This document shows, in pieces, positions 9,976 to 60,945 of a stretch of 64,000 bases of DNA; positions within the stretch are counted from its first letter, which is position 1, and the number at the start of each line of letters is the position of its first letter. Origin of the DNA: Octopus vulgaris (Eukaryota); NCBI GenBank assembly GCA_951406725.2, contig OX597831.1, forward strand, positions 15,190,001-15,254,000. The letters are read 5' to 3'. Both the position numbers and the translations under genes were made by a program. A model generated the notes under the pieces. The model saw only the letters and a list, made by a program, of their open reading frames with translations, did not search any database and was not told the origin of the DNA.

Positions 9976-10016
9976 ATGATAAATATGAACGTACACACAT
10001 ATATATATATACATGT

Positions 10017-10093
<77 letters not shown>

Positions 10094-10171
10094 GAAAAGG
10101 AACACACGAGTTGATATATATGAAAAAACAAGTAAAAAATAGAAAATGCTAAAATAATTTTATAGTGAACA

Positions 10172-10215
10172 TTTCAGTACCGGTTTCGGTCATTTTGAGA
10201 CCTTTTCAACTGTAA
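10172..10215 (-). ncRNA. Minimal type I hammerhead ribozyme (U3-A8 variant) in the PLE 3' pLTR
   Basis: The - strand reads cag-TTGAAAA-GGTC tcaaaat GACC-GAAA-CCGG-TA-ctg: stem I, core, stem II, palindromic stem III and a GUA cleavage triplet. Confidence 0.85.
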
Positions 10216-10550
10216 CGATTAAATAATTAAATTTATTTTTAGAAAAATTAGAAGAAAAGTTTTTTTAAAAGAATATTTCTATAGTAGTGTTCAGATTTAA
10301 GTGGCATTCTGCCTTTCTCTGACTCCCTTGTTTGCACTTGTGTGTTCGAGGTAGTTGTGAGTTCTTGGTAGGGTAGTAGAGGGAAGGCTGGTGAGGAAAG
10401 GGGGTGGGAGAATCTGGGAGTGCCCTGATGGTCGTATTTTGAATGGTCAGTGGCGGCTGGCAGTCTCAGTTCAATTCAGGATTGTTTATAGATTTAGCGT
10501 AGGTGTTATACTAAAAAACATTAGTGACAAACTTAAGGGGTAGGGGGTGG

Positions 10551-10800
10551 AGAAGAAGAAGAAGAAGAAGAAGAAGAAGATGTAGGAGAAGGAGAAGATG
10601 ATGGTGATGGTGGTGATGATTATGACGACGATGATGATGATAACGATGATGATGAAGAAGAAGAAGAAGAAGAAGAAGAAGAAGAAGAAGAAGAAGAAGA
10701 AGAAGGAGAAGGAGAAGATGGTGGTGATGATGGTGGTGATGATGATGACGCCGATGATGATGATAACGATGATGATGAAGAAGAAGAAGAAGAAAAAAAC
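10551..10800. repeat. (GAA)n/(GAT)n compound microsatellite inside the PLE 3' UTR
   Basis: An equivalent compound tract lies at the same relative position in the second PLE copy (36234-36435). Confidence 0.9.
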
Positions 10801-10926
10801 AGAGAAGGGAGAATATGAATGGGTGTAAATATAGCTATGAAGGGGCTGATTAGTAATGGATTCTATGGAGTGTAGTATTTGTGTGTGTATATATATTTTT
10901 TTCTTTTATTCTAAAGTTGAGGTATA

Positions 10927-11454
10927 TTAATTGTTTGTCGTAGACCCGTTAAGAAGTGGCTTGTATTTTGTAATAAAGAGATTTTCTTTACTTATTCTTT
11001 GTCTCGAGGTTGTATCGTCCCTAAATTGGTAGAGGGGGAAAATTCTGAAGTTTGGTGTTTTTTTGTTGGCGCAAGTATCTATGTGTTGGCTAAAAGCTAT
11101 TTTTCTGTTTTGGGGAATTTTTATCTGGGATCTGTGCAGGGCCATTCGTTTACGCAAACCATTTTTTGTTTGGCCTATGTACTGCTCTTGACACCCGGAG
11201 CAGGTTAGTGAGTATATTAGGTTCTCCGAAGCACATGTGAAGTTGCTTTTCACTGTAAACCGTTGTCCCTGTTTGAAGGAGAACTCCGAACCCTCGATTA
11301 GATAGTCGCATATCCCGCAATTGGGTCTTCCACATTTTTTTACTGTCGGCTTCTGTGTTGAAGAGTGAATTCGGGCTTGTGTAAGGAGACTTTTCATGGA
11401 TCTAGGCTGTCTTTTGCTTTTTATGATCGTGTGTGTTTGGAGGATTGTGTTCAT
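10927..11454 (-). CDS. PLE GIY-YIG endonuclease with Cys-rich linker (C-terminus of the RT-EN polyprotein)
   Basis: CGRPNCGIC...FTCASENLIYSLTCSGCQEQYIGQT...LRKRMALHRS...QH...KENLFITKYKPLLN. Removing one C at ~11472-11474 fuses it in frame to the RT (LHNIPLLKKDHRMNTIL). Confidence 0.93.
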   Translation of the reverse strand: MNTILQTHTIIKSKRQPRSMKSLLTQARIHSSTQKPTVKKCGRPNCGICDYLIEGSEFSFKQGQRFTVKSNFTCASENLIYSLTCSGCQEQYIGQTKNGLRKRMALHRSQIKIPQNRKIAFSQHIDTCANKKTPNFRIFPLYQFRDDTTSRQRISKENLFITKYKPLLNGSTTNN

Positions 11455-13306
11455 TCTGTGGTCTTTTTTTAGGGAGGGGTATGTTGTGGAGGATGGTGTC
11501 GAAAGCTTCGTTATTGAGAGGGTTGTGTGTGGAGATGTATGGTAAGGCTTTTGGTTGTAAGTTTTTCTTTGATTTGGGATGTCTCAGTTCCTTGATGTTA
11601 AGTTGAAGGGCACGTTGAATGCACTTGTCAATAAGTGAAGGTGGATAGTTCCTGGTGATTAGGGTATCTTTTAGTTCTTGTAGTCGTGTGTCTCTGGTGT
11701 TTGCGTTAGAGACTATAGTGCATATCCTTTTTGCTAGATTGAAGGGGATATTCATCCTGGTGTGTCTGGGGTGGCATGAATTGAATGGAAGATATTGCTT
11801 AGAGTCTGTAGGCTTATAGTATATGTCTGTTTCTATTATATTATTAGCTTTCTTAATGAGGATATCGAGGAAGGGGAGTTGTTGTTGGCTATATTCCATC
11901 GTGAATTGGATGTTTACGTCCAGTCCGTTTAAAATTTTCTGGAATTCTATGAGTTTTTCTATATTTTTATGCCAAAGGATGAAACAGTCATCTAGATATC
12001 TCTTCCAGTTGTTTTCTATGTAGATGGAGAAAGGGCTGCCATATCTTTCTAGAACCTTACGATACAGACTGATCTCTAGGTATCCTATGACTAGGTTGGC
12101 AAAGGAGGGGGCCATTCGTGTACCCATCGCAGTCCCCGATTTTTGTCGGTAGAAGTTGTCATTGAAGGCGAAGAAGTTATTTTCCAGGATGAATTTAACC
12201 CCTTCTATCACAAATTCTTTTTTGATGCGGTGTGGTAGTTCGTTGGCGTGATTCTCTAGCCAGAATTGGATTGCCTCTAGTCCTAGGTTGTGGGGGATAT
12301 TGGAGTAGAGGTTGACTACATCGAAGGATACCAGTATGGTGTTTTTGTTTATAGTATTCGGTAGGTGATTGAGCATATCTAAGTCGTCCCTTATATAGCT
12401 TTTGACATGTTTGAGGAGTGGTTTTAACAGGGTGTCTAAAAAGTTACTGAGGCGGTGGGTTTCGCATGCGGGACCTGCTATTATGGGTCTCAATTTGAGG
12501 TCATTAGGATTAGGGACTTTAATTATTTTGTCTGTAGCTATCTTGCATGCGTTGCTTATTTTTTCACTTTTGTGGATCTTAGGTATACCGTAGAATTGGC
12601 TAGTTTTACTTGTGAAATTGGTCATATAATCATATTCTTTGTCGGTGAGCCCTGCTTTGTATGGGTTTAATATGGATTTTAGTTCCCTCATTATTTTTTG
12701 TTGACTGTAGTTTTGTGCCTTTTCATAGTATGTTGTGTCTTCCAGCATAGAAAGTACCAAAGTTATGTAAAATGTCGTATCCATTAAGACAACAGCACTC
12801 CCTTTATCGGCCTCTTTGATTGTTATTGTTTTATCTAGTTTTAATTTGTTCAACTCAGCCCATTCTTTTTTGCTGAAGTTTGGTTTGTGTTTTTGTTTGT
12901 GCATATGTTGATATGGGTAATTTGATATGTGGTCACAGAAATCATCAAGTGTTTTATTCTTACCTTTCGAGGGGGTGTAGTTACTCCTATTTCTGGCTAA
13001 CGATTCGTCCTCGTTGTATTTATCGTATAGCTCCTCAGTAAGTCTTAATTTTCTGCAGAATTCTGCGATGTCTTCTTTCATTTCATTGTAGTTGGGGTGT
13101 TGTGGGGTGGGTGTAAACTTGAGTCCTTTGGAAAGTATGTTTATTTGGTTTGCTGTTAGTTCCTTGTGAGTTAGATTAATAATTTTTATTACTTTTGGTT
13201 CCTCCTGCTTGTTTGGTGCTATCTTGTGTCTCTGTGTTTGCGTATTGGGTCTAAAAATGAATGCGGTGGTTGGGACGGTAGCTAGTATATAGTTGTTCTT
13301 TGTTGA
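11402..13306 (-). CDS. PLE reverse transcriptase (frame open 75 codons upstream of the ATG at 13081)
   Basis: Motifs INLTHKELTANQINILSKGLKFTPTP (upstream of the ATG), ADKGSAVV, FYGIPKIHK...LRPIIAGP, SFDVVNLYSNI, GTAMGTRMAPSFANL, WKRYLDDCF, LPFLD, YYKPTDSKQYLPFNSCHP. A 1-nt frameshift near 11472 separates it from the endonuclease. Confidence 0.95.
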   Translation of the reverse strand, partial: STKNNYILATVPTTAFIFRPNTQTQRHKIAPNKQEEPKVIKIINLTHKELTANQINILSKGLKFTPTPQHPNYNEMKEDIAEFCRKLRLTEELYDKYNEDESLARNRSNYTPSKGKNKTLDDFCDHISNYPYQHMHKQKHKPNFSKKEWAELNKLKLDKTITIKEADKGSAVVLMDTTFYITLVLSMLEDTTYYEKAQNYSQQKIMRELKSILNPYKAGLTDKEYDYMTNFTSKTSQFYGIPKIHKSEKISNACKIATDKIIKVPNPNDLKLRPIIAGPACETHRLSNFLDTLLKPLLKHVKSYIRDDLDMLNHLPNTINKNTILVSFDVVNLYSNIPHNLGLEAIQFWLENHANELPHRIKKEFVIEGVKFILENNFFAFNDNFYRQKSGTAMGTRMAPSFANLVIGYLEISLYRKVLERYGSPFSIYIENNWKRYLDDCFILWHKNIEKLIEFQKILNGLDVNIQFTMEYSQQQLPFLDILIKKANNIIETDIYYKPTDSKQYLPFNSCHPRHTRMNIPFNLAKRICTIVSNANTRDTRLQELKDTLITRNYPPSLIDKCIQRALQLNIKELRHPKSKKNLQPKALPYISTHNPLNNEAFDTILHNIPLPKKRPQNEHNPPNTHDHKKQKTA

Positions 13307-14092
13307 TTAGGGGTCTCCTGTTGTGATTTGTGGTGTGTGTTCTTGGAGCAGTATTGAGGAGAGCATCCCGATATCCCATATTCGGGTGTGGTGTTCTAGG
13401 AGGCCTTCGTTGGTAATCATTGCAAGTGGTGTGGGTTTGTTGTGCATGGTTGTTTAACCGGTTAATGGGACGAAGATTTCGTTGGTAACTCCTTTGGGTG
13501 GGGATGAGGTTGCAGTGTCTATGCTGTGGGTGTTGATTTATCCTTTCTCTGCTTGAAGTGGGGTATTCCTGATATTGTATCGCTGGCTGCTTACAGAGTT
13601 GGGGTTAGGTCCTGTATTCTTTTTTTGATAGTAGTGAAGGTTCCGATTTTTAGACGGGTGTGTATCGGTGTTTGGGTGTTGTTTTGGTTTTCTTATTTTC
13701 TGGAAAGGGTTGTTGGAGGCGTGCTCTGTTTGAAAGACGGCTTCATAGTCTGAGAACCAAGTGGCGCTTTTCTCCCAGCGTTGGAGAGATTTTTTAGTAT
13801 AACACCTACGCTAATTCTATAAACAATCCTGAATTGAACTGAGACTGCCAGCCGCCACTGACCATTCAAAATACGACCATCAGGGCACTCCCAGATTCTC
13901 CCACCCCCTTTCCTCACCAGCCTTCCCTCTACTACCCTACCAAGAACTCACAACTACCTCGAACACACAAGTGCAAACAAGGGAGTCAGAGAAAGGCAGA
14001 ATGCCACTTAAATCTGAACACTACTATAGAAATATTCTTTTAAAAAAACTTTTCTTCTAATTTTTCTAAAAATAAATTTAATTATTTAATCG

Positions 14093-14136
14093 TTACAGTT
14101 GAAAAGGTCTCAAAATGACCGAAACCGGTACTGAAA
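14093..14136 (+). ncRNA. Minimal type I hammerhead ribozyme (U3-A8 variant) in the inverted pLTR
   Basis: ttacagTTGAAAAggtctcaaaatgaccGAAAccggTActgaaa, identical to the copy at 10172-10215. Confidence 0.85.
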
Positions 14137-14183
14137 TGTTCACTATAAAATTATTTTAGCATTTTTCTATTTTTTACTTGTTT

Positions 14184-14245
<62 letters not shown>

Positions 14246-29076: not shown

Positions 29077-29880
29077 ACGAGGTGGTATCAAAACGTTGGT
29101 GGTCTAGTTATTTTTAATAAAATATAACTTATTCATTGAAGTTTCAACAAATTCTTCGAGATAGTCATTTTTTGGAGGAATAAATCGGTCTCAGCTTTCC
29201 AGCCACTTTTGGAATCCGGTCCTGAAGTTGTTTGCCGAAAGGGAGTCGATGACCTTCCGATCTGGATCTCGTCAATGGTGTTAAACCGCGAACTTTGAGC
29301 TGCCTTTTCCTCTACGGAAAGAATTGGTAGTCTGCGGGAGCTGAATGTAGTGAATAGGGCTGTTGCGGTGCGATACCATGCTGTATCTGGTAAGAAACTC
29401 ACAAATGAGGAGAGCTCGCTGACAGATGGCATTGTCGTCGTAAAGAATCCAGTTCTTCCTGCTTCACAGATCTCGAAGCTTTCACCGATTGTCCTCCCGC
29501 AAACGTTTCGAAAGTTCGCAGTTGATCTCTCGATCAGCGGTCTGGCTCTTGGGAACGATCGATTCAAACGACCGCTGATATAAAAAAAAGTCGATGGACA
29601 TGCTGTTGATTGAGCATGTTCGGTCATGGACAGGAAGGCATCTTCCATCGTGCACCCTGCTGCTTCAGCGCCGTAAGCTTGTTGAAACACGCTCAATACC
29701 TCTGTAGGAGATTTCCCGAATTTATCGCAAAACTTCACGTTGGCTGTTTGTTCCAACTTCCTGTACGTTACAAAATCGTAGACTACAGCATACACGGGAT
29801 CACAAGAACCCACAATTCACGAATTGCGAAATAAACACAGCGATGTGTCTCGGACACTCCCTTATGAAGGTCACTACCGC
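29077..29880 (-). mobile_element. Degenerate, internally deleted mariner
   Basis: TA+CGAGGTGGTATCAAAA terminus at 29077. N-terminal LEQTANVKFCDKFGKSPTE...QQAYG, with HDNA- and YSP-like remnants out of frame. Confidence 0.8.
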
Positions 29881-35750: not shown

Positions 35751-35784
35751 CGTACGTACATACATATATGTCTTTATAAATATA

Positions 35785-36369
35785 TATATATGAAAAAACA
35801 AGTCAAGATAGAAAATGCTAAAATAATTTTATAAAGAACATTTCAGTACCGGTTTCGGACATTTTGAGACCTTTTCAACTGTAACGATTAAATAATTAAA
35901 TTTAGAAAAATTAAAAGAAAAGTTTAAAAAAAAATAAAATTTTGTATAGTGTTCAAATATGTGTCATATTCCTTGTTTCTGCCTTGCTCTGTCTCTCTTG
36001 TTTGCACTTGTGTGTTCGAGGTCCTTGTGAATTCTTGGTAGGGTAGAAGAAGAAGAAGGATGATGAGGAGAAGGGGTGGAAAAATTTGGGAGTGCCTTGA
36101 TTGTCGTATTTTGAATGATCAGTTGCAGTTCAATTCAGGAGAATATTTCTATTGAAAGGTTTGTTTATAGAATTTGCGTAGGAGTTATACTAAAAAGCAT
36201 TGGTGATAAAGTTAAGAAGTAGAAGGTGGAGCAGAAGAAGAAGAAGAAGAAAAAGAAGAAGAAGAAGAAGAAGAAGAAGAAGAAGAAGAAGAAGAAGAAG
36301 AAGAAGAAAAAGATGATGATGACGATGTTGATGATGATGATGAAGAAGAAGAAGGAGAAGAAGAAGAAG

Positions 36370-36400
<31 letters not shown>

Positions 36401-37125
36401 CGACGATGATGAAGGAGAGGAAGAAGAAGAAAGAGAAGGGAGAATATGAATGAGTGGAAGTAGTGAGGTGTTGTATGACTTGAAGTTGGCACGTTATGGA
36501 TTATAGCTGTGATTGGGGATGATTTGTAATGGATCATTTGGAATGTAATATTTGCGTGTGTATTTGTGTTATTCTAAAGCTTGGGTGTATAAATCGTTTG
36601 TCGTAGACCCGTTAAGAAGTGGCCTGTATTTTGTAATAAAGAGAGTTTCTTTACTTATTCGTTGTCTCGAGGTTGTATCGTCCCTGAATTGGTAGAAGGG
36701 TAAAATCCTGAAGCCTGGTGTTTTGTTGTTGGCGCAAGTATCTATATGTTGGCTGAAAGCTATTTTTCTGTTTTGGGAATTTTTATCTGGGATCTGTGCA
36801 GGGCCATTCTTTTACGCAAACTATTTTTTGTTTGGCCTATGTACTGCTCTTGACATAAGGAGCAGGTTAGTGTGTATATCAGGTTCTCCGAAGCACATGT
36901 GAAGTTGCTTTTCACTGTAAACCGTTGTCCCTGTTTGAAGGAGAACTCTGATCCCTCAATTAGATAATCGCATATCCCGCAATTGGGTCTTCCACATTTT
37001 TTTACTGTCGGCTTCTGTGTTGAAGAGTGTATTCGGGTTTGTGTTAGGGAGACTTTTCATAGATGTAGGCTGCCTCTTGGTTTTTATGATCGTGTATGTT
37101 TTATGATCGTGCGTGTTTTATGATC

Positions 37126-58965: not shown

Positions 58966-60380
58966 GTTTTTTATTAGCCACACAGGACTGCACACATACA
59001 GGAAAGATTACAAAGTAGAGCTTTTTTTTTTTTGGAAAAAATAAAAGGTGGGGTAGGTTTTCGATCAAAAGGGATCGTAAAAGGGAAAGAAGAGAAAAAA
59101 AAGGAAAAAAGAAAAGAAACAAAAGAAGAGAAAAAAGAAAAACGAAAAAAAAACGATCAATAGGGATCGTGTATCACAGTGTCATGATGTAAGGTGTAAA
59201 GGGGGAAGCAGATAAGGATTATCCGTGGGAAGAAAAGCCTACGGAAAAAGACTACGGTAACTTCGGTCAATATTGTTACATGTTACTACATTTGTTTGCA
59301 AGTAGGTAACCCTCTGTTTTATATTTCCGGGTTCATAGGATTATGCTCAAGGTCGCTTCGTCATTCACACGTGCCATCCTTGCTACCTTCACCCAACATT
59401 TTTGAAACATTCGCTAGACAACACATGCCTCTGTACTCTCACTTTCCTTTTCAAGTGATACTTGAAGAAGTTGATGAGAGATTGACCTGAGAGGACAGTG
59501 TTTGTCTCCAATTCTCTCAGACGAGTCCACCAGATACATTCTTTCGCCATAGCCACAAGGATGATGAAAATAGCTCTTCCTTCCCGTTTGAAGGAAGGAG
59601 GCGTGACAATATTAACGATAGACTCGGCTGATAAACCGACTCGTCTCACACGTGACAACAGCTGTTGAAAATAAGCCCATAGGTCGGGCATTGTTGGACA
59701 CTGCACGAGTGCGTGCAGAATTGTTTCGTCGCTCTGACCGCATCTCGGGCACGTCGGCCCCGTATTTCTCGAGCCGTGTCTGTAGAGTTTAACCCGAATG
59801 GGTAGCGCTTCTCGGTAGCACTGCCAGGCTAGGGATATCGGGAAGTTGTCCATGGGTCCTGGCCCGAAAGTCGTTCTGAACAGGCGGGTCAGGTATTCCT
59901 CGTCGACGTCCAGGTTCGCTCCGAGCTCGTCGTACTTCCCATCCACTAATCCCCCATAGAATGCTTGGGTTGTGTTGAAGTCACGCAAGGTCGACCCAGG
60001 ACGGCAAAGTTGCTTGAGAGCAAAGCGACACTCGCGGTGCCATTCGCCCTTCCTCGGCCTCTTTTTGATCCACGACTCCAGTTCGGTCATGGAGACGAGT
60101 TGTGGGAAAGCGTGCCTCACAAACGGTACCACACCTGTTCACCGTCGTCTACGTAGAGCTTGAGATATCGCAATCTCAGCGCGTGTCTATGCAACATCAA
60201 CCACGGCATGCCCAGTCCTCCTTTTAACGGTTGTTGACAGCAAATGGATCGCCTGACCATCGGGACGCATCCTTTCCACAAGAAGCGAAAGAGAATACGT
60301 TCTAGTTTGGTGATGGTAGGGTCGGGACAAGGCACGACGATCAGGCGGTGGTAGATGACGGGCGTGTTGTACGAGTTCGT
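58966..60380 (-). mobile_element. 5'-truncated Tx1/L1-clade LINE (ORF2 C-terminus and 3' UTR) in (GATA)n
   Basis: [12 protein letters not shown]...[10 protein letters not shown], zf-RVT-like CPRCGQSDETILHALVQC, IWWTR. The 3' UTR ends AATAAA then (TATC)n. Confidence 0.88.
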
Positions 60381-60381
60381 G

Positions 60382-60441
<60 letters not shown>

Positions 60442-60515
60442 GTAGACAGACGGGTAGATAGATGCACAGACAGGTAGACAGACAGCCAGACAGGTAGATA
60501 GATAGACAGACAGGT

Positions 60516-60550
<35 letters not shown>

Positions 60551-60666
60551 TAGACAGATAGATAGATAGATAAAGAGGTAGACAGACAGGTAGATAGATA
60601 AAGAGGTAGACAGACAGGTAGATAGATAAAGAGGTAGACAGACATTTAGATAGATAAACAGACATG

Positions 60667-60738
<72 letters not shown>

Positions 60739-60757
60739 CAGACTAGTAGATAGATAA

Positions 60758-60945
60758 CTTTCTTTATTGGCCACAAAGGGCAGAACACAGAGGCGACAAA
60801 TACAAATGTAGAGCTTTTCTTTTCGAAAATGAAAAAACAAATGGGGGAAAATAAGAAAAAAGTATAAATTGCAATCGAAACGGATCGGGGAAACCAAGAA
60901 AAAACGAAAAAAAAACGATCAAAAGGGATCGTGTATCACAGAAGA
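60758..60945 (-). mobile_element. 3' UTR-only copy of a related Tx1 subfamily
   Basis: Shares tttattRgccaca, tacaaa(t)gtagagcttt and acgatcaaWagggatcgtgtatcacag with 58966-59180. Also ends in (TATC)n. Confidence 0.75.

Follow-up and report, generated by a model that had tools for sequence, protein, structure and literature searches.

A stretch of 64,000 nucleotides (nt) of Octopus vulgaris DNA (contig OX597831.1, positions 15,190,001 to 15,254,000; hereafter the window) carries on its minus strand a Penelope-like element (PLE), in which Pfam recognized a reverse transcriptase (RT; PF00078, E 2e-8) followed by a GIY-YIG endonuclease (EN; PF01541, E 7e-5). An RT joined to a GIY-YIG endonuclease with CCHH-type cysteines is one hallmark of endonuclease-bearing (EN+) PLEs; a second one, pseudo-long terminal repeats (pLTRs) derived from partial tandems, with an inverted 5′-truncated copy and a tail at one side only, was present as well (Table 1). 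The insertion is an ordinary product with textbook PLE anatomy, its inverted arms, one-sided tail and hammerhead ribozyme all having been published for PLEs already. What departs from the canonical description of EN+ PLEs, which gives them one open reading frame (ORF), is that this family has two overlapping ORFs. Taken together, the results make it quite probable that the window holds a 5′-truncated, frameshifted insertion of a very young PLE family, likely of Neptune type, whose intact copies combine a 411-amino acid (aa) ORF1 with an overlapping RT-EN frame that is likely reached by programmed −1 frameshifting at the heptamer U UUU UUA.

A search of a 2.8-Gb genome (G000) gave 51 matches from the best 40 of 4,204 candidates, of which the top 30 were used. 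Over a 2.88-kb coding stretch these closest copies showed a mean pairwise difference of 0.26% (maximum 0.76%), and the nearest neighbours of the window copy differed from it by one substitution in the 2.88 kb. ORF2 was open for 784 codons from stop to stop in 26 of the 30, and when 150 places were scored in a second search, the frame was open for 784-785 codons at about 49 of them. The family is very young, in line with the initial annotation of this DNA, which spoke of a young element and a recent insertion. Twenty of the 24 sequencing runs listed, which came from 8 studies, contained half or more of the sequence words sought, no RNA run was listed among those containing them, and no relative was found among viral contigs. 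The same genome also holds at least three further families of this lineage (loci L127-L156 and L167-L176), with near-identical intact copies and 58-72% RT identity to the window family.

ORF1 of the intact copies starts with an AUG and encodes 411 aa in 12 of the 13 copies that keep this codon. It overlaps ORF2, which lies in the −1 frame, by 20 codons, and U UUU UUA lies in phase within the overlap. In ORF2 no AUG occurs before residue 68, past the conserved RT N-terminal motif GLKF at residue 53. This layout replaces the single polyprotein of the initial annotation, in which one extra C was thought to have broken the frame: the extra base at 11472-11474 does exist and is absent from the 29 other copies, and the window copy has suffered two more losses of 1 nt.

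The comparison was extended to 97 loci (80 from metagenomes, 16 from a genome collection and one own copy). In the 43 that were kept, the RT match began no later than residue 60 and the 5′ boundary lay inside the contig. A separate scoring looked for marks of the Neptune type, namely the finger spacer, the thumb motif or the 26-aa spacer. Thirteen of the 43 loci, namely the window family and 12 distant relatives, were of Neptune type, and all 13 had a long ORF1 in the −1 arrangement together with an in-phase heptamer; L067 and L116, with 27 by a loose pattern, were left out of this count. Among the other 30 loci the signal was seen in one, L101, which is of the DKN type. Overlapping ORFs of at least 120 codons were arranged for a −1 shift in 15 cases and for a +1 shift in one, and an in-phase heptamer accompanied 14 of the 15. 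Judged from the background of the same elements, chance would supply heptamers at about 3 of 15 sites, and 15 sites had them. In addition, U UUU UUA stands in phase in three of the further families of G000, whose RTs are 58-72% identical; two of these families were fetched after the pattern was noted. The site presents what is expected of a programmed −1 signal, an in-phase X XXY YYZ heptamer within a −1 overlap that is conserved in relatives.

The ORF1 proteins of 7 elements have a common conserved core, and an AlphaFold model built from 9 sequences was all-helical with a disordered tail, its pLDDT exceeding 90 across roughly residues 100-240. Pfam at curated cut-offs assigned none of 11 ORF1s to a family, and homologue searches returned three unnamed homologues, no usable Atlas match and no family name. 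Because ORF1 and RT-EN overlap and are joined at U UUU UUA, ribosomes likely slip back one base there to make the enzyme. A tandem copy would be transcribed from its upstream pLTR; most ribosomes would then yield ORF1, which is predicted to be all-helical, to end in a basic, disordered tail and likely to package the RNA, while a minority would slip at the heptamer and produce an ORF1-RT-EN fusion of about 1,180 aa, giving a ratio similar to that of gag-pol.

Two other routes to ORF2 were weighed against frameshifting. If ORF2 were joined to an upstream exon by splicing, the U-run followed by AG would serve as the 3′ splice site; the window family does have UAG at the end of a pyrimidine run, preceded by words that resemble branch points, and introns are known in PLEs (PMC8557442, PMC4209133). 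However, no AG follows the run in L034, L044, L075, L111, L038, L060 and L101, three of which have A-rich heptamers, and the phase relative to both frames is preserved throughout, so splicing appears very improbable. Contigs from three runs that are only guessed to be RNA span the slippery site without a joint, which is too weak to count. Translation of ORF2 could also begin by termination-reinitiation or at an AUG or near-AUG start of its own close to the ORF1 stop. Families L127 and L170 and several homologues have an ORF2 AUG at the position of the ORF1 stop, and the window family has an AUA overlapping it; yet the codon that overlaps the stop varies (AUA, CUA, GUA, UUA), most two-ORF loci have no AUG there, and the conserved in-phase heptamer would be left unexplained. 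We regard this route as unlikely, although less so than splicing.

Programmed −1 frameshifting is the explanation to which we give a good probability, and several points weigh against it or against the wider reading of the element. The cut-offs that define the 43 loci were set after the table had been seen, and related loci are not independent. L082 may be Neptune-like and has no signal. Two sister families in G000, the two distant loci L060 and L075, and many database homologues have an AUG in ORF2 ahead of the conserved motif, so that other routes to ORF2 may exist. Since the 30 copies were picked as the closest to the window copy, their divergence understates the age range of the family. 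The assignment to a clade was made from motifs read by eye. Finally, nested folding of 45 and 90 nt downstream of the heptamer beat shuffled sequences at only 2 of 15 sites (z -4.2 and -2.2), and no fold better than shuffles was found for the window family in this analysis, in which pseudoknots and long-range pairs were not searched.

The position of the ORF1 stop offers a candidate stimulator other than an RNA fold. The distance from the A-site codon of the heptamer to this stop, in 17 loci or families (L173 and L171, with no intact motif, were left out), was 11 codons in 9, 12 in 2 and 13 in 2, thus 11-13 codons in 13 of the 17, and 18, 20, 21 and 1 in the remainder, while the distance from the heptamer to the RT motif varied about twofold in the same set. 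For the first 15 loci the background chance of a distance of 11 was 3.2%, and eight equal values arose in 2e-5 of simulations, a figure whose significance is overstated by the shared ancestry of the loci. A ribosome paused at the ORF1 stop might hold its follower on the heptamer. When a ribosome was stalled at UGA in E. coli reporters, the one behind it slipped by −1 more often, with a peak at a 9-codon spacer (PMC6815119); a distance of 11 in the present loci leaves 10 codons between. Yeast disomes need a gap of about 10 codons as a minimum and are longer at stops (10.1101/2023.02.01.526718). The stop spacing, together with the E. coli and yeast figures, fits a queue of ribosomes. On the other side, the two families fetched afterwards gave 11 and 21; codons 10-11 encode Arg-Trp in several families, a pair that gives ORF2 an AUG and hints at a constraint on the peptide or on the AUG; in SARS-CoV-2 the position of the stop matters in another way, letting the pseudoknot refold (PMC8168617); and a long-range fold or a bound protein could act instead. 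We therefore propose the queue only tentatively, as a doubtful refinement of programmed frameshifting, and it is with equal caution that we extend it to Neptune-type Penelope elements from many sources, whose RT-EN might be made by a −1 shift stimulated by a ribosome terminating one ribosome-length downstream.

Other PLEs in the set showed related layouts. In a DKN-type group (L065, L084, L085, L088, L091, L092, L094, L095, L098, L103 and L110), mostly without an endonuclease motif by the pattern used, ORF1 reaches 800 aa, A AAA AAC stands in phase near the start of the RT frame, and an overlap of about 200 codons is coding in both frames. A second Neptune-type subgroup has long ORF1s (L075 1-975, L090 1917-3845, L060 1331-3655), and in L060 the heptamer is U UUA AAC with the stop immediately after it. 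The ends of L075 and L090 resemble, by eye, SGNH esterase motifs; Pfam found nothing there. Esterases of Neptune-like PLEs are mentioned in PMC5408684. PLEs filed under bacterial bins or gill-symbiont names (L111-L126; P0029, P0071, P0076, P0077, P0080 and P0093) are probably host DNA.

Table 1. Features of the PLE insertion, with positions in the window
Feature	Positions	Strand	Basis
(TA)n target repeat, left flank	9999..10089	.	
Tail of 24 nt with which the next unit of a tandem transcript begins; absent from the other end, and the insertion's true 3′ end	10090..10113	-	
3′-terminal pLTR arm, 405 bp	10114..10518	-	arm alignment
Minimal type I hammerhead, first copy; predicted cut after 10178	10175..10212	-	descriptor; weak Rfam HH9
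3′ untranslated region; trinucleotide repeats at 10551-10778	10519..10926	-	
ORF2 (RT, linker zinc finger, GIY-YIG); broken in the window copy	10927..13281	-	
GIY-YIG endonuclease domain, C-terminal	10957..11220	-	PF01541, residues 122-209 of 218-aa frame
CX4CxxC linker finger; 24-aa spacer to next Cys (Neptune-type length)	11308..11334	-	
Homopolymer run longer by one base in the window copy only, breaking ORF2	11472..11474	-	
Reverse transcriptase core	11933..12496	-	PF00078, residues 271-458 of 634-aa frame
Stop codon position of the family's ORF1, 11 codons past the A-site codon of the slippery site	13219..13221	-	
ORF1, 3′ part, beginning near residue 221 of 411; 1-nt loss at 13560-13563	13219..13789	-	
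Slippery site, lacking one U in the window copy; all 29 others compared have U UUU UUA	13252..13257	-	
Inversion junction; 4-nt overlap common to body and arm; body begins at unit position 719 of 4433	13790..13793	.	
Tail-less inverted copy (406 bp) of the 3′ end, 5′-truncated	13790..14195	+	
Hammerhead, second copy; predicted cut after 14130	14096..14133	+	descriptor
(TA)n target repeat, right flank	14188..14245	.	

To which clade the family belongs was judged from its motifs. The initial annotation had called it Naiad, pointing to an insert of about 20 aa between PKIHK and RPII and to the CxxxxCxxC linker. Craig et al. (2021, PMC8557442) define Naiads as having the endonuclease N-terminal to the RT, DKA in place of DKG and an insert that separates RT3 from RT4, and as lacking a canonical hammerhead; the insert, termed IFD, consists of about 20 extra aa, some Naiads lack it, and cephalopod Naiads are described as remnants (PMC8557442). 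In contrast, the window family has its endonuclease C-terminal to the RT, the RT motif ADKG, no IFD (an RT3-RT4 span of 64, against 65 in Poseidon-type rows with the same pattern) and a standard minimal type I hammerhead in both arms. Neither of the two proposed marks is diagnostic. The CX2-5CxxC finger is common to Neptune, Nematis and Naiad (PMC8557442), and two Naiad proteins that were compared have only 5 aa between PKxHK and the next R (PMC8557442), against a PKIHK-RPII spacer of 26 aa in the window family; the finger and a long spacer are therefore no marks of Naiad. In favour of a still active Naiad family with a single polyprotein stand the endonuclease and finger, which in Naiad are called indistinguishable from those of Neptune (PMC8557442), and the common (TA)n targeting; the inverted 5′-truncated copy and the one-sided tail are likewise found in both. 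The domain order refutes this reading, and DKG, the missing IFD, the region of the Naiad CxC motif, the standard hammerhead and the two ORFs also separate the window family from Naiad (PMC8557442), which leaves the Naiad reading next to no credit: the family is almost certainly something else.

The marks point instead to Neptune. The linker finger CX4CxxC, combined with a C-terminal endonuclease, conforms to the Neptune pattern CX2-5CxxC, and the spacer after the finger is 24 aa, close to the 25-27 aa of four Neptune-type rows of Fig. S2 and unlike the roughly 5-8 aa of Nematis, all counted by eye (PMC8557442). The thumb and pre-linker motifs resemble the Neptune rows of Fig. S7 (PMC8557442). 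The 26-aa spacer after PKIHK marks a clade of 11 rows (SH-aLRT 99) in an RT tree made by a quick method from 69 rows without named references, from which strict motif filters had dropped 8 two-ORF loci; this tree only separates the window family from a finger-less single-ORF group. As in the Neptune clade, an RT is followed by a C-terminal GIY-YIG, with the CX2-5CxxC finger and a long spacer, DKG, no IFD, a hammerhead in the pLTR and (TA)n targets (PMC8557442). We consider it highly probable that the family is of Neptune type.

The structure of the insertion largely agreed with the initial annotation, which had recognized a PLE with an inverted 5′-truncated pLTR and minimal hammerheads, one in each arm, and had placed both ends in (TA)n; the 3′ end, though, extends 24 nt further, to 10090. 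The arms (10114-10518 and 13790-14195) align over 406 columns with the one mismatch already noted between these copies of about 405 bp (10493/13815), and with a 1-nt indel in an A-run that had been missed. Relative to the natural unit of 4,433 nt, the window copy is without the first 718 nt. Its ORFs are interrupted by three private 1-nt indels, the extra base at 11472-11474 and losses in the G-run at 13560-13563 and the A-run at 13253-13257, and it is likely dead. The three frameshifts and the arm indel all fall in homopolymer runs, and the window copy has three indel events where each of the 29 other copies has 0 or 1 (5 altogether), both of which fit the reading that the frameshifts are assembly errors and that the retained frames are intact in the animal. 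RT slippage during one insertion could give the same indels, however, and an error-free copy would still have neither an ORF1 start nor a correctly oriented upstream pLTR; we rate assembly errors at slightly under an even chance. The arms were also thought to fold the transcript into a double-stranded RNA panhandle. This would occur only if one transcript spanned both arms, and since the 5′ arm faces outward, such a transcript would need read-through from the flank.

A direct upstream pLTR is present at 12 of the 30 loci; the other 18 are truncated, and 15 of these have an inverted 5′-truncated partner. These 15 inversion junctions comprise 8 with an overlap of 2-8 nt, 3 blunt ones and 4 with 3-14 extra bases, and no palindrome is evident in the printed junctions, a difference from the rotifer cases described (PMC3846280). 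No inverted duplication of the flanks was seen at the window insertion; the only cases found were a repeat of local kind at L029 and, at L023, an inverted repeat of older date. The latter spans about 100 bp, with the insertion of L023 and L163 (G000:C10 near 66.61-66.62 Mb) at its middle. Elsewhere (L002/L003, G000:C9 40.507-40.517 Mb) two long copies stand head to head as an inverted repeat of several kb, one of them with a direct pLTR ahead.

In the RNA, the ends of the insertions map to two UA-rich words that are separated by about 25-35 nt. The tail was identified from tandem copies, in which the same letters come after the pLTR end, and it was present at exactly one end in 14 of 14 insertions with both ends read: 5 initial ones, 8 in which the far end turned out as predicted, and a ninth that fits (L030/L166, whose ends were not found, were left out). 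One-sided tails are published for PLEs (PMC8557442; PMC3846280), and Craig et al. ascribe the tail to resolution of an intermediate by the endonuclease (PMC8557442). In vitro, the green anole Poseidon element PAc primes internally at two adjacent sites (PMC11167929). The window family resembles PAc in that both strands would be nicked and extended, that two adjacent internal RT start sites would give the tail by their spacing, and that uncut RNA would be the main template; it differs in that the priming sites of PAc are reported as non-homologous to the target, whereas the end points here lie in UA-rich words matching (TA)n (PMC11167929). By this scheme the endonuclease would nick both strands of the (TA)n tract, consistent with the in vitro Poseidon work, and each nick would prime internal reverse transcription at one of the two UA-rich sites, so that the tail appears at one end only. 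The two cDNAs would terminate early and join via a few shared bases, which would generate the inverted arm, and the inserted copies would derive from RNA not cut at the hammerhead site. Both nicks may be primed within a single event, one per site, although the data do not separate this from the endonuclease-resolution model; the strict rule of one tail (14/14) would lend genomic support to two-site internal priming within one insertion event.

Each hammerhead has a 3-bp stem I, a core with U3-A8, a 4-bp stem II and GAAA, and its stem III is the palindrome CCGG. In the 64 kb of the window the minimal descriptor had two matches and no more, one in each arm (cores at 14099 on the plus and 10209 on the minus strand), whereas 300 shuffles averaged 0.01 matches and never gave more than 1. 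The Rfam match was weak (HH9, 19.7 bits, E 0.39), and at the gathering score Rfam gave no match in the window; its miRNA matches were rejected as AT repeats. The motif was identical in 40 of 46 occurrences across the 30 loci. With the patterns used, no hammerhead was found in loci of the sister families, so that the motif has no support from covariation. In a cofold model the stem III regions of two copies pair, and the ribozyme is predicted to cut only as a dimer. The U3-A8 core variant, the small palindromic helix III and the predicted dimer are known for PLE hammerheads, from which the present motif shows no notable difference (PMC4209133). An older 5′-truncated relative from the same family, of 78-85% DNA identity, lies at 35784-37119 on the minus strand of the window, ending in (TA)n without a tail and with a mismatched stem II in its hammerhead.

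The minus strand of the window has two other features of note. A frame of 227 codons at 29133-29816 resembles, by eye, a decayed mariner-type transposase. At 59389-60935 lie fragments, split by a tetranucleotide repeat, which by eye resemble the C-terminal part of an L1/Tx1-type retrotransposon.

Among PLEs, frameshift-pseudoknot elements are represented by Athena/Terminons and Coprina. According to the Fig. 1 legend of PMC8557442, PLEs can have their ORF1 set off by a frameshift and pseudoknot; the window family shares with such elements a coiled-coil-like ORF1 that a frameshift, here a probable one, would link to the RT frame, and differs from them in that no hairpin or pseudoknot was found (nested folding only; pseudoknots were not searched). 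Neptune may be among the clades to which the legend applies, so a Neptune frameshift may already be known. Our literature search, outside whose scope Arkhipova 2006 and 2017 fell, found no paper tying Penelope to a programmed ribosomal frameshift, and a search of the frameshift literature gave no mention of PLEs among the matches listed; no mention of frameshifting was found in the available portions of 10.64898/2026.07.22.740005 and PMC13282606. The less usual part is not the insertion itself, it is the conserved two-ORF layout with an apparently structure-free frameshift signal. A conserved ORF1 with a gag-pol-like signal alters the idea of the active protein and of what biochemical studies should express, and the recurrent distance from heptamer to stop, with no shared RNA fold, makes the question of the queue as stimulator testable in animal cells. 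In the literature searched, queue-stimulated frameshifting is found only in engineered bacterial reporters; if true here, a natural eukaryotic frameshift programme would be driven by a ribosome queue, with enzyme output tied to the ribosome load on ORF1.

Canonical EN+ PLEs are described as having a single ORF (PMC8557442, PMC4209133, PMC11167929). Killifish Neptune also has two, but these are reported as non-overlapping and the accessible text mentions no frameshift, whereas the 411-aa ORF1 of the window family overlaps ORF2 at a slippery heptamer (PMC12602865). This arrangement has a parallel in HIV-1 gag-pol, which has the same heptamer, U UUU UUA, and the same layout from structural protein to enzyme; HIV-1, however, has a stem-loop (PMC4373837), while the window family has none downstream and, across loci, the heptamer is instead followed at a recurrent spacing by the zero-frame stop.

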